Shown in pieces: positions 5,931 through 36,634 of a stretch of DNA of 43,002 nucleotides (position 1 is the first letter of the stretch; each line of letters starts with the position of its first letter). The translations under genes and the position numbers were made by a program. Source of the DNA: a virus (Duplodnaviria > Heunggongvirae > Uroviricota > Caudoviricetes); IMG/VR virus record IMGVR_UViG_2740892012_000013, positions 1 through 43,002 of that record; one strand, given 5' to 3'. The notes under the pieces were generated by a model. The model searched no databases and was not told the origin of the DNA. It saw only the letters and a program-made list of their open reading frames with translations.

Positions 5931-5947
5931 ATTACCTTTCAGGTAAT
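5931..5947. promoter_or_regulatory. Operator-like 17-bp palindrome ATTACCTTTCAGGTAAT (perfect)
   Basis: Perfect 7-bp inverted repeat with 3-bp spacer; one of about 12 related sites in the window; in the divergent region between tailspike and the 6023 gene. Confidence 0.6.
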
Positions 5948-6303: not shown

Positions 6304-6810
6304 TTAACAGTCGTAAAATTCTGGGTCCCACAAACTTGCATCGCGCGGCATGGATTCTAACTTTTTCAGCCGCAAAATTCTGTCACACTCGACAACTAAT
6401 TTTTGCTTCTGCTCGTCAATTTCTACTGTCTTATGCGCTGGTTCATCCCAATAATCCAGAAGGAAGGCATGGCGTTCAGATGTGACCAGATAAATCACAT
6501 ACACGTCACTGGTTGGGATCTTTTTATGCTTGTTAGTGGTCTTGTCTTTCTTCCCAGACGCCCAGTTTTTCCAGCATTGTTCCGTACCGCTCTCACCAAA
6601 CTTGTCAGTATAGTTTCCGATGTTTAAGTGAACGTGGCGTATGTGATATTCCAGCATCTCTTTCGGTGGATCTCGAAACAGAGTGTCCTTTCCGAAATCC
6701 TTATGATGACCGTAGCGCCAGTGATCTATGAACGCGTTTTTGATAGGTATTAGCTCAGGGTCCTTCCCAAAAATTCCAGGGTGAACCAACCCCTGGAATT
6801 TATTCGGCAT
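6304..6810 (-). CDS. YafO-family-like toxin candidate (paralog 1)
   Basis: From ATG at 6810: ...FIDHWRYGHHKDFGKDTLFRDP...HIRHVHLNIGNY...YVIYLV...AFLLDYWDEPAH; pattern matches my recollection of E. coli YafO (GRDALYD...RVAHIHL...HLVYC...WLLIAILKPEPH). Paralog of 8881-9393. Confidence 0.55.
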   Translation of the reverse strand: MPNKFQGLVHPGIFGKDPELIPIKNAFIDHWRYGHHKDFGKDTLFRDPPKEMLEYHIRHVHLNIGNYTDKFGESGTEQCWKNWASGKKDKTTNKHKKIPTSDVYVIYLVTSERHAFLLDYWDEPAHKTVEIDEQKQKLVVECDRILRLKKLESMPRDASLWDPEFYDC

Positions 6811-7327
6811 CGTCGTAGAGCTCCTGAGCCATGTCTTCAGCAGTGCGTGCAAACATCCTGCGCGAGATTGCATGGGATTTCTCTACGGACATCTTTGGGA
6901 CCTCATGCATAACAAGTTGATGAGTTTTCTCATCAACTTGAAGTGGCTTGTATAAACGTTGCCACCTTTCGTTAATTTTATCCTTAAAGCCAGCGAAACC
7001 ACTTTCCTGACTCTTGTATCCAAAATGAGATAAAGCCAAATTCCTTTCCATTTCATTCCTAATGTACTCAGCAAGGTTGCAGTGGAATACTTCCCCTTGT
7101 TTTTTTAGGCATGCTTCATGGTCTGTAACACTGTGACGGCTCTCATATAAGTAAATGCGATAGGAATTTTTATTATCCTCTTCTTCATAATTTCTAATCG
7201 CATCAGCAGTTGCCATAGCTGCAGCATAAGCGGCTGCTTCAATCACCATCTCTTGCTCTTTTTCTTTTTCAGGCCTTTTCAAGGCAAAGCGTCTATGCCT
7301 CATCGCTGTAACTCTCTTCGTGTTCAT
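6800..7327 (-). CDS. Hypothetical protein, upstream partner of YafO-like paralog 1 (candidate antitoxin/regulator)
   Basis: ATG at 7327 with SD GGGGGTG; 175 aa, acidic C-terminus; 3' end overlaps toxin-candidate start by 11 nt; no family recognised. Confidence 0.45.
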   Translation of the reverse strand: MNTKRVTAMRHRRFALKRPEKEKEQEMVIEAAAYAAAMATADAIRNYEEEDNKNSYRIYLYESRHSVTDHEACLKKQGEVFHCNLAEYIRNEMERNLALSHFGYKSQESGFAGFKDKINERWQRLYKPLQVDEKTHQLVMHEVPKMSVEKSHAISRRMFARTAEDMAQELYDDAE

Positions 7328-7338
7328 GGGCACCCCCA

Positions 7339-7355
7339 ACTACCTTTAGGGTAAA
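7339..7355. promoter_or_regulatory. Operator-like palindrome, imperfect (ACTACCTTTAGGGTAAA)
   Basis: Matches ATTACCT-N3-AGGTAAT at most positions; immediately upstream of the 7327 start. Confidence 0.4.
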
Positions 7356-7463
7356 CATTCTATCGAAAGTATACGCTCACTGGCAAAAAAATAGGCAGGT
7401 ATTTTCTGAAATGGGATCAATCAAACCACATAGGGTTGAAATGACGTGAGTTATGCATTTATC

Positions 7464-7480
7464 ATTACCTTTGCGGTAAA
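7464..7480. promoter_or_regulatory. Operator-like palindrome (ATTACCTTTGCGGTAAA)
   Basis: Left half-site perfect, right half 5/7; in the 7328-7748 divergent intergenic region. Confidence 0.45.
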
Positions 7481-7571
7481 TTTACATTGCACTCCTCTTG
7501 TGCCATAGTAATCGGGCACTGGCAAAATCCAGTGCCGGGATTGGCGTTCCGGATTACTAAAAGGCGCATTC

Positions 7572-7591
7572 ACCGCGCAAGCGGTTTTTTT
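7572..7591 (+). terminator. Intrinsic terminator-like hairpin inside the 5' intergenic region of the Bro-N gene
   Basis: ACCGC-GCAA-GCGGT stem-loop followed by TTTTTTT; preceded by a longer hairpin (GGCACTGG...CCAGTGCC at about 7515-7540). Confidence 0.5.
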
Positions 7592-7748
7592 ATGCGTATA
7601 GCACGGCCACATTCGTATTATGGTGGGCTGTGTGGGGGCACCGAAAGGTGCGCCGGGTCCTTTTAGCCGGTTACGCCAACCCTGCACAGTTCACCACCAA
7701 CCGATTGGCGTCGGTAGTGGTGATTAACCAGACTAAAAGGTAACCACT

Positions 7749-8444
7749 ATGACAGCTACAAAAAGCACGTCCATTTTTTCTTTCGAATCCCAAGCCGATA
7801 TACGAGTAATCGTCATAAATGGTGAGCCATGGTTTATCGCTTCAGATGTTTGTCGGGCTATAGGCATAGCAAACCATCGAGATGCTGTTCGAAAACTTGA
7901 TGATGATGAGAAGGGCGTCGCTTCAACCGACACCCCTGGCGGTGAGCAAGAATCGATCATCATCTCCGAGTCAGGCCTCTACACACTGATCCTCCGCTGC
8001 CGCGACGCAGTGACACCAGGCACTATCCCCTACCGCTTTCGTAAATGGGTTACAGGTGAGGTTCTTCCTCAGATCCGCCGCACCGGAAGTTACATTAAAA
8101 ACTCGCTCCCGCAGGAAGAACGCATAAAGATGGTTGCCGACCAGGTAGCCAACGCCACAGCATCAGCAGTGATGCAGGCAATGAAGATAGAGAACAAAAC
8201 CTACAGCGCCCCACTGAAGCCCGGCTACCGCAGTTTGATTCACTCGCCGTCTGGTGTTCTCGGCCTGACGGAGAACTCACTGCTGATGAATCTGCTGAAC
8301 CAGTTACAGGAAGACGGGCACGACGTATCGGGCGCGGCGGCGGAGCTGACCACCATGTTCTGCTACATCGTCGGTGTGAGCAAATGCCTGCGTGATATCC
8401 AGACCCACGCGGAGTACATCAACGACAAGGCAGGGTTCTTCTGA
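7749..8444 (+). CDS. Antirepressor with N-terminal Bro-N domain and shared C-terminal (ORF6C-like) domain
   Basis: N-terminus FSFESQADIRVIVINGEPWFIASDVCRAIGI...ESGLYTLILRC...PYRFRKWVTGEVLPQIRRTGSY is a classic Bro-N signature; C-terminal ~75 aa near-identical to that of 9710-10648. Confidence 0.75.
   Translation: MTATKSTSIFSFESQADIRVIVINGEPWFIASDVCRAIGIANHRDAVRKLDDDEKGVASTDTPGGEQESIIISESGLYTLILRCRDAVTPGTIPYRFRKWVTGEVLPQIRRTGSYIKNSLPQEERIKMVADQVANATASAVMQAMKIENKTYSAPLKPGYRSLIHSPSGVLGLTENSLLMNLLNQLQEDGHDVSGAAAELTTMFCYIVGVSKCLRDIQTHAEYINDKAGFF
8211..8444. repeat. Left arm of ~234-bp near-identical inverted repeat (3' end of Bro-N antirepressor gene)
   Basis: Reverse complement of 9710-9943 with only a handful of mismatches by eye. 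Confidence 0.8.
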
Positions 8445-27163: not shown

Positions 27164-27240
27164 GTGGCATTAGCTCAGTTGGACAGAGCAACCGCCTTCT
27201 AAGCGGTTGGTCGCAGGTTCGAATCCTGCATGCCACGCCA
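27164..27240 (+). tRNA. tRNA-Arg (anticodon UCU, reads AGA)
   Basis: Folded by hand: 7-bp acceptor stem GTGGCAT/ATGCCAC, D-arm GCTC...GAGC, anticodon stem ACCGC/GCGGT with loop CTTCTAA, T-arm GCAGG-TTCGAAT-CCTGC, discriminator G, encoded CCA. Confidence 0.9.
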
Positions 27241-36403: not shown

Positions 36404-36634
36404 TCATGAGTAGAAGAAGTATGCCAGTTCCGCTTTTGAGCGCAGCCATTGTCTTGTTTTACATGCTTTAAAAAGCCCATTCATCAATACCTTACCTGGC
36501 ATTTTGCGCTTACCTGTTAAGTGAGTCTGGATATAGTGACTCGTCGTTCCGGCTTCCTGTGCGAAGGCTTCACGCTCATCCGGAGTAAGTGCAAGCCAGT
36601 GCTTTTTGAAATCGAAATGTCCGTTATCGCTCAT
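36404..36634 (-). CDS. Cro-like HTH DNA-binding protein
   Basis: 76 aa; HTH-like segment EAFAQEAGTTSHYIQTHLTGKR; first gene leftward from the divergent operator region. Confidence 0.5.
   Translation of the reverse strand: MSDNGHFDFKKHWLALTPDEREAFAQEAGTTSHYIQTHLTGKRKMPGKVLMNGLFKACKTRQWLRSKAELAYFFYS

Follow-up and report, generated by a model that had tools for sequence, protein, structure and literature searches.

The window analysed here, a stretch of 43,002 nucleotides, is a prophage of the phiV10/epsilon15 type, a podovirus of the genus Uetakevirus. Positions 7300-7800 match the E. coli Nord58 chromosome with 100% identity, and phiV10 and TL-2011b share 97-99% identity with the window from about 7460 onward. 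The most downstream part of the locus is an antirepressor gene (ant, 7749-8444, plus strand), whose ATG lies at 7749 as originally predicted and whose product matches Pfam Bro-N (E = 2.3e-21); PGAP likewise calls a Bro-N domain protein in Nord58. The nearest gene upstream (6800-7327) lies on the minus strand, and no plus-strand gene is found upstream. Between the hypothetical CDS and the Bro-N CDS, the PGAP annotation of Nord58 contains no RNA. Two RNA genes are nevertheless present there, an IsrK-family small RNA (7516-7591) and a C4 antisense RNA (7616-7701), and IsrK, C4 and the Bro-N gene occur in the same order and direction, all on the plus strand. Sequences matching the module (7505-7760) are found by blastn in 307 phage records, and megablast with a 501-nt query that takes in the module together with its flanks (7300-7800) finds matches in 941 of the 5,426 complete E. 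coli genomes.

Both RNA genes were identified by scanning the whole window against Rfam at curated thresholds, which returned four matches, two of them adjoining at this locus on the plus strand. The isrK model (RF01394) matches 7516-7591 with 72.3 bits (cut-off 50; E = 1.1e-13) over model positions 1-77 of 77, and the C4 model (RF01695) matches 7616-7701 with 77.7 bits (cut-off 45; E = 1e-13) over model positions 1-87 of 87. A third model, c4-a1b1 (RF03163), defined by Weinberg et al. 2010 (PMC2864571) as the a1 and b1 targets of C4 antisense RNA, reaches 39.0 bits on 7503-7555, under its cut-off of 46.7 (E = 1.7e-8), and overlaps the promoter -10 and the first two isrK hairpins. We have filed the leader under isrK rather than c4-a1b1 because isrK describes the same bases better. 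Rfam groups c4-a1b1 and C4 in one clan, and c4-a1b1 matches overlap isrK matches, so that a curated connection from the IsrK leader to C4 already exists. The Rfam name of the isrK family also records Hfq binding. A permissive scan of 7380-7800 (E ≤ 1) found isrK, C4 and c4-a1b1 only and no ligand-sensing RNA family, and no plus-strand ORF that could encode a leader peptide lies wholly between the transcription start and the terminator. Elsewhere in the window, a sar match (10650-10717) precedes a second antirepressor gene.

The IsrK sequence begins with hairpin 1 (7516-7535, plus strand), which corresponds to the 8-bp GC-rich hairpin reported before, with arms GGCACTGG (7515-7522) and CCAGTGCC (7529-7536). 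Hairpin 2 (7536-7551) carries in its loop the target copy b1, TTGGCGT (7541-7547), and is followed by a single-stranded linker with the target copy a1, CTAAAAGG (7557-7564). The RNA ends in a Rho-independent terminator (7572-7591), detected by a terminator scan and also expected from the original prediction, in which an ACCGC/GCGGT stem closes a GCAA loop (7572-7585) before a run of seven T. Thus, the leader has the score, the hairpins, linker and terminator with compensatory change, and the position before C4 and an antirepressor that are expected of an isrK member. The leader had been drawn as 7480-7591; the RNA from 7516 stands, and the part before 7516 is promoter. We conclude that 7481-7591 very probably comprises an IsrK-family small RNA gene together with its promoter, the first element of an RNA switch of the P1 immI type.

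The sigma-70 promoter found by a promoter scan (7481-7509, plus strand) consists of a -35 TTTACA (7481-7486), a 17-bp spacer and a TG-extended -10 CATAGT (7504-7509). Its predicted transcription start, about 7516, coincides with position 1 of the Rfam isrK model, and the published numbering of Gifsy-1 mutants (C18, G28, G31, A107, C159, C162 and G173) also fits the start of this model. The -10 aligns with the annotated -10 of P1c4 (P51b) in phage P1, and its positions A2 and T6 are invariant among 13 phages. Another promoter-like site lies upstream, at 7436-7465. The operator placed at 7464-7480 by the original prediction is indeed a palindrome of the form TTACC-N5-GGTAA, TTACCTTTGCGGTAA (7465-7479, no strand assigned), which ends 1 nt before the -35. 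Such sites occur 14 times in the window against 0.73 expected, and none of 100 shuffles reaches 14. Further copies lie on either side of a Cro/C1-type HTH gene (36789-37373, for a 194-aa protein) and of a divergent cro-like ORF. The distance from the end of the palindrome to the start of isrK is 37 nt in the window, in Tyrion and in Klebsiella phage ST512-KPC3phi13.3, and 34 nt in phiV10; the palindrome is absent from the non-Uetakevirus modules compared. By analogy with Oc4 of P1, the palindrome at 7465-7479 is probably the operator of the prophage repressor, with the bound protein assigned by the same analogy; the repressor may silence the promoter-like site at 7436-7465 or act on the isrK promoter.

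The C4 RNA (7616-7701, plus strand) is formed by a closing stem (7621-7637 with 7680-7696), hairpin 1 (7638-7651), hairpin 2 (7652-7671) with the loop a, CCTTTTAG (7659-7666), and the junction b, ACGCCAA (7673-7679). The further GAAA-loop hairpin noted before is present at about 7637-7651 (GGCACC-GAAA-GGTGC) but is hairpin 1 of this larger, separate RNA and not part of the leader. Downstream of C4, a second TTGGCGT (b2, 7705-7711) lies at the tip of a hairpin (7691-7723), and a second CTAAAAGG (a2, 7733-7740) overlaps the Shine-Dalgarno motif of ant (AAGG), which is 8 nt from the start codon. The segments a and b of C4 are therefore complementary both to sites upstream (a1 and b1) and to sites at the downstream ribosome-binding region (a2 and b2), as expected of C4: the a1 8-mer, repeated as a2, is an exact complement of loop a, and the b1 7-mer, repeated as b2, is an exact complement of junction b. 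The 8-mer CTAAAAGG is found twice and its complement once, with no other occurrence of these 8-mers in the 43-kb window. The original prediction had missed the C4 gene and the two target-mimic sequences in the leader, and also that the whole module has already been described.

Folding energy gives an uneven picture of these elements. The energy of IsrK (7516-7591) is unexceptional (z = -1.44; 16 of 200 shuffles equal it), and we have dropped folding energy as a proof for the leader. C4 folds far better than expected (z = -4.70 vs -1.21 for the opposite strand), and so does the b2 hairpin at 7691-7723 (z = -4.27). The a:a2 duplex alone is weak and A/U-rich (-12.4 kcal/mol; 156 of 1000 shuffles are as good). 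Since the A/U-rich 8-mer cannot be told from its shuffles at a single locus, the energies of the a:a1 and a:a2 duplexes in the window were also set aside, and covariation was used instead. It is the covariance-model matches, the compensatory changes and the unique 8-mers, not folding energy, that place the leader beyond chance.

The same arrangement is widespread. Rfam matches of isrK followed by C4 were found in all eleven further phage loci that we fetched. The two elements precede an antirepressor or icd-like gene in phiV10, Tyrion, the Klebsiella phage, Hafnia yong2 and APSE-8, and also in Gifsy-1, Stx phages, SfV, and Moraxella and Actinobacillus phages. In P1, C4 and c4-a1b1 are above their cut-offs and the leader is under that of isrK (35.1 bits), whereas the window leader, as noted, is under that of c4-a1b1, which is passed by Gifsy-1, Stx phages and P1. 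In the record of Hamiltonella phage APSE-8, the depositors themselves marked isrK, C4 and the antisense regions ahead of a Bro-N gene, arranged as in the window, and the annotation of phiV10 has a "putative rho-independent terminator" at the equivalent place as well as an "anti-immunity protein". To widen the comparison, we scanned viral contigs with GCAAAATC-N7-CGGGATT and obtained 68 loci, 17 of which were kept by inspection as true modules, the remaining loci being treated as chance matches. With these 17 divergent IMG/VR modules, the comparison comprises 28 loci.

Among the 28 loci, the structure and the pairing partners covary, so that the structural conservation in related prophages that had been proposed as a test was found. 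Changes in the C4 loop and junction are mirrored in both target copies across phages; variant targets of this kind include TTCGCAT in APSE-8, TTAGCAC in the Actinobacillus phage, TTGGTCT in Tyrion and TTGACAG in P1. By exact-match search, the triple of upstream site, C4 segment and downstream site is found in nearly all 28 loci, and the triples are diverse, with at least 10 b sequences and mostly different a sequences. Duplexes of the C4 a/b region of a phage with its own targets are more stable than those with targets of other phages, both upstream (mean -31.4 vs -22.1 kcal/mol) and downstream (mean -27.4 vs -21.1 kcal/mol), and in either case none of 20,000 permutations reaches the cognate value. 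The intramolecular helices behave in the same manner. In a 13-sequence alignment, 93.5% of cells are paired and 21 pairs have changed on both sides, including six of the seven pairs of hairpin 1 and two of the six of hairpin 2; none of 500 shuffles is as high, and slid controls show 38-44% pairing. The terminator with its U-run is kept in all 28 loci, P1 included.

In every relative examined, the equivalent of a2 overlaps the ribosome-binding region of the next gene. In 26 of 27 loci, b2 is displayed at the apex of such a hairpin as in the window (mean z = -2.34), which RNAalifold predicts with compensatory changes. The hairpin takes its 5′ strand from the C4 closing stem, of which it is the 3′ arm, and is thus incompatible with folded C4. 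RNAalifold also predicted, among the 13 annotated phage loci, a helix over the ant start (AUGGUGG at 7620-7626 with CCACUAU at 7744-7750). We do not claim this helix; it has no two-sided changes and, by eye, is lost in most of the divergent IMG/VR loci.

Among the closest described systems is that of Gifsy-1, whose IsrK belongs to the same covariance-model family (79.3 bits there vs 72.3 here). The three-hairpin architecture, the terminator and the place before a C4-like element and an antirepressor are common to both, and the identity is 54 of 79 aligned positions in isrK and 67 of 87 in C4. The b1/b pair TTGGCGT/ACGCCAA of Gifsy-1 is identical in the window, whereas the a1/a/a2 specificity is TCACCG in Gifsy-1 and CTAAAAGG in the window. 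Gifsy-1 is lambdoid, and the window, of the phiV10/epsilon15 type, has no antQ upstream. The antirepressors, AnrP in Gifsy-1 and Bro-N in the window, are unrelated in sequence, and we found no homology between the two.

In Gifsy-1, some of the isrK transcription passes the terminator into orf45 and anrP, and the resulting longer RNA is silent in translation (Hershko-Shalev et al. 2016, PMC4825925). Fusions to anrP respond to IsrK provided in trans, the translational fusion rising 139-fold and the transcriptional fusion 8-fold (PMC4825925). The silent fold requires the pairing of G28 and G31 with C162 and C159, as shown by the compensatory mutants G28A/C162U and G31A/C159U; the double mutants did not come back down to the wild-type level (224 and 327 units vs 4; PMC4825925). 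We mapped G28 and G31 to b1 (transcript positions 26-32) and C159 and C162 to b of C4, and both segments of the window agree with Gifsy-1 in every base and in transcript position. The incomplete restoration is, in our reading, what is expected if b of C4 must also pair with b2, as in P1. Furthermore, IsrK and STnc1160, a stable RNA just downstream of IsrK (PMC4825925) whose equivalence to the C4 element is putative, are transcribed at a high level by Gifsy-1 lysogens under every condition tested (PMC7067206). The suggestion that the leader might be a small RNA or an attenuator gating antirepressor expression is thus supported, in that an IsrK-family gene with its own promoter and terminator lies here, and in Gifsy-1 this family controls the translation of the antirepressor downstream (PMC4825925).

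One step of the Gifsy-1 mechanism relies on translation of orf45, which overlaps the anrP start (PMC4825925). The ORF from the conserved AUGG of C4 has 45 codons in Gifsy-1, 35 codons in the window (7620-7727), and 14-15 codons in P1, Tyrion, the Klebsiella phage and APSE-8. This step may not transfer to the window, because the equivalent ORF stops 21 nt short of the ant ATG. We also rejected a conserved orf45- or icd-like protein from the C4 AUG, as the length of the frame ranges from 14 to 123 codons.

The immI region of P1 and P7 and the window share the same order of parts: operator (putative in the window), promoter, leader targets, C4, targets at the ribosome-binding site and antirepressor. 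The P1 annotation lists the operator Oc4, promoters, a1, b1, c4, a2, b2, icd and ant. The c4 antisense RNA with a1/b1 and a2/b2 targets in P1/P7 immI was reportedly described by Citron and Schuster in 1990. According to a review, specificity in P1 and P7 resides in two short variable segments, which are the basis of heteroimmunity, and the same holds for the module studied here. The systems differ in that P1 has icd between C4 and ant and its C4 masks the icd ribosome site, whereas the window has no icd-like gene between C4 and ant and a2 lies at the ribosome site of ant itself; the P1 operator also belongs to a different repressor. A 77-aa ORF occupies the place of icd in SfV and Hafnia yong2, its kinship with icd being putative. 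The CI RNA of P4 is processed from an untranslated leader and pairs with complementary copies upstream (seqA) and downstream (seqC). This is a resemblance only; P4 CI acts by premature transcription termination on replication genes, and the regulated gene of the window is an antirepressor. The Gifsy-1 authors describe IsrK as structurally homologous to SeqA (PMC4825925). The sar RNA of P22, again a small RNA, prevents translation of an antirepressor by acting at its ribosome site, but it is a true cis-antisense RNA from the opposite strand and is unrelated in sequence. These comparisons lead us to regard the element as a real, functional and ordinary member of described families (isrK, c4-a1b1 and C4, in a P1-type immI), already described in general and simply unannotated in this phiV10/epsilon15-type E. 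coli prophage. Our literature search for the module in phages of this type found nothing; the paper on vB_EcoP_ZX5 covers the repressor and anti-repressor proteins only. In that phage, overexpression of the anti-repressor annotated at the equivalent locus reduced lysogeny (PMC9782041); its likeness to the window protein is putative.

From these systems we infer the transcript ends, the processing, and the direction and size of each effect at this locus as follows. Transcription would begin at about 7516, and a part of it would stop at the terminator (7572-7591) to give a 76-nt IsrK, while the remainder would continue into C4 and ant. C4 would pair through loop a with a2 and through junction b with b2, so that the ant Shine-Dalgarno sequence is covered, no Ant is made and the repressor stays active; C4 repression at the ribosome site is taken from a review of P1/P7 work and from the P1 GenBank annotation. 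In P1, C4 is excised from the operon transcript by RNase P. Here C4 may act inside the read-through RNA or as a processed RNA of about 77-86 nt, as in P1. In cis, the leader decoys b1 and a1 would keep RNA that has passed the terminator folded in an inactive form. In trans, a surplus of short IsrK would compete for a and b of C4, which would free the ribosome site, turn on Ant translation and favour induction; this activation has been demonstrated in Gifsy-1 and is extended to the window by analogy. One point speaks against this scheme: pairing of b1 with b in cis would leave b2 and a2 free, yet translation stays off.

The leader might instead be chiefly a transcription attenuator that responds to C4, as seqA and seqC do to the CI RNA of P4. 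We consider this doubtful as the main function, and it is compatible with the decoy mechanism. The 3′ flank of a1, GGCGC (7563-7567), could pair with the 5′ arm of the terminator and delay terminator formation; C4 bound to a1 and b1 would block this antiterminator, and termination at 7591 would rise. C4 would then limit its own synthesis together with ant transcription, and the short IsrK would be mainly a by-product. At most loci, the fold of the nascent RNA contains a small hairpin between the flank of a1 and either the 5′ arm or the loop of the terminator, with a negative z in 23 of 28 (mean -1.39), a result that is only suggestive since the parsing was imperfect. It is clearest in P1 (UGCGG-ACAA-CCGCA, by eye) and in IMG/VR loci with GGCGG...CCGCC. 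The Gifsy-1 authors raised the same possibility and compared IsrK with SeqA of P4, and the 8-fold rise of the transcriptional fusion in response to IsrK in trans agrees with it (PMC4825925). On the other hand, the antiterminator candidate of the window has only 4 bp, and the minimum-energy fold favours the terminator. Upstream pairing takes up 3 nt or more of the 5′ arm of the terminator in only 10 of 28 loci, as counted by an automated terminator/antiterminator parse that mis-assigned several loci, P1 among them. Constitutive STnc1160 gave no relief of IsrK toxicity in Gifsy-1 (PMC4825925). Moreover, the 8-fold transcriptional effect could also be a relief of Rho polarity, which is familiar from the P1 literature. 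The a1 flank can pair with the terminator arm, and therefore C4 at a1 could favour termination; in this form the attenuator idea of the original prediction survives, and we treat it as a hypothesis because the hairpin in the window has only 4 bp.

A rather improbable alternative is that the leader acts in cis only, with a1 and b1 aiding the folding or processing of the C4 precursor and the terminated RNA having no regulatory role. The P1 annotation labels a1 and b1 merely as "putative target sites" within the c4-icd-ant mRNA, the minimum-energy fold of 7510-7760 pairs a1 and b1 intramolecularly with a and b of C4, and the orf45 coupling of Gifsy-1 is not conserved. However, the presence of a terminator and U-run in every one of the loci compared argues for a discrete short RNA, and the short RNA of Gifsy-1 is abundant and active in trans (PMC4825925, PMC7067206).

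It is very improbable that the stretch codes for a protein, either from the minus-strand ORF 7451-7687 or from the plus-strand 35-aa ORF 7620-7727. Open frames do exist, and the minus-strand frame is not the only one, as had been stated before; plus-strand ORFs are also found at 7487-7666, 7620-7727 and 7630-7743, none of them supported. The GenBank records of ZX5, the Klebsiella phage, Mcat4 and pPE4 place CDSs at the corresponding position ("ash family protein" or "hypothetical protein"), and translation of the plus-strand ORF matters in Gifsy-1 (PMC4825925). Yet neither ORF has a Pfam match, the minus-strand frame does not stay open in 16 of 28 relatives, the plus-strand frame varies in length as described above, and the substitutions obey base-pairing rather than codon rules; the two RNA families fully explain the bases. 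Finally, that the hairpins arose by chance and the terminator just ends an upstream transcript, as the modest z of IsrK (-1.44) might suggest, has practically no likelihood given covariance-model E values of about 1e-13, compensatory covariation, a three-way complementarity kept across 28 loci, and an upstream neighbour (6800-7327) that is on the minus strand with none on the plus strand.

Returning to the decoy mechanism, we tentatively propose that the module is a co-transcriptional switch with two checkpoints, for which we have seen no earlier description as such; that both checkpoints operate together is doubtful. At the first, a1 overlaps the small antiterminator hairpin, and C4 on the nascent leader would cause more termination at 7591, which would make IsrK both a C4-sensing attenuator and a decoy. 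The second would lie in the closing stem of C4, whose 3′ arm doubles as the 5′ strand of the conserved b2 hairpin, and each read-through RNA would become either a C4 that can be processed or an mRNA that displays b2.

The importance of the finding lies mainly in annotation. The module decides antirepressor synthesis, and hence prophage silence; it accounts for the 420-nt "empty" gap before the Bro-N gene, over which some phage records put dubious protein genes. The module opens no new question in itself. Its antisense specificity can be predicted to be shared in part, as the b segment is that of Gifsy-1 and Stx phages and the a segment is different. Podoviruses of the phiV10/epsilon15 type use a P1-type RNA immunity layer, and, if the two-checkpoint proposal is true, two checkpoints combined with many a and b variants would make it a modular and easily re-coded immunity lock.

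At 9710-11440 the window carries a further antirepressor module, which is of the P22 immI type. Its parts are an ant gene (9710-10648, minus strand) encoding a P22_AR_N domain, a match to the Rfam sar RNA (10650-10717; 45.2 bits against a cut-off of 43 bits) that is antisense to the ribosome-site region of this ant gene, an Arc-like ORF (10721-10924, minus strand) and a Mnt-like ORF (10979-11440, plus strand). Together with the Bro-N ant gene (7749-8444) and its isrK/C4 RNAs, this makes two antirepressors in a single prophage, each with a different antisense-RNA gate. The two proteins differ in their N-terminal domains (Bro-N versus P22_AR_N), but their C-terminal 101 amino acids are 83% identical. 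A third, small protein (5900/6023-6280) is made up almost entirely of this C-terminal domain (42% identity), and an operator-like site lies ahead of it at 5932. It may be through this common domain that the repressor is contacted.

With up to one mismatch allowed, the window holds 14 copies of the palindrome TTACC-N5-GGTAA, compared with 0.73 expected. These 15-nt sites lie at 5932, 7340, 7465, 8511, 26827, 30008, 30026, 34326, 34388, 36334, 36671, 36719, 37431 and 37493. Within the accessory cluster at 5.9-8.6 kb, several genes have a site upstream, and copies are also found on the flanks of an HTH_3 gene (36789-37373) and its divergent cro-like ORF (36404-36634). The copies look like scattered operators of the prophage repressor, resembling the dispersed repressor operators of P1. 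It was also observed that two gene pairs flank the Bro-N ant gene, at 6304-7327 (minus strand) and 8568-9393 (plus strand), and that in each pair an unknown ORF precedes a YafO-like toxin gene, with a TTACC-N5-GGTAA site upstream of the pair. The two toxins are similar to each other; their Pfam YafO_toxin matches fall under the cut-off, and PGAP annotates both as YafO family toxins. A tRNA-Arg gene (anticodon TCT) is located inside the prophage at 27164-27240, and in Gifsy-1, too, a tRNA-Arg follows the isrK-anrP-isrJ locus at a distance of a few hundred bases.

Around the ant start, b2, the downstream copy of the C4-junction target (7705-7711), occupies the apex of a conserved hairpin (7691-7723) whose equivalent is present in 26 of the 27 related loci. 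The 5′ strand of this hairpin doubles as the 3′ arm of the closing stem of C4, so that folded C4 and the b2 hairpin are mutually exclusive in the unprocessed transcript, an arrangement of which we found no description in the accessible literature. RNAalifold also predicted, in the 13 annotated phage loci, a long-range helix between the conserved 5′ end of C4 (AUGGUGG, 7620-7626) and CCACUAU (7744-7750), which spans the ant start codon. This helix shows no two-sided changes in those 13 loci and is not retained in most of the divergent ones; it is probably fortuitous.

In several GenBank phage records, protein genes named "hypothetical protein" or "ash family protein" are annotated over the isrK/C4 RNAs (L011, 1363-1560, minus strand; L005, 1220-1345; L009, 1241-1333; MW722083, vB_EcoP_ZX5, 1722-2063), and these are probably false gene calls. 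In SfV and Hafnia yong2, the isrK-C4 module precedes a 77-amino-acid ORF instead of a Bro-N gene, and the antirepressor encoded after the module in Gifsy-1 and the Stx phages is not related to that of the window. The isrK-C4 RNA cassette looks portable, with different outputs attached to it.
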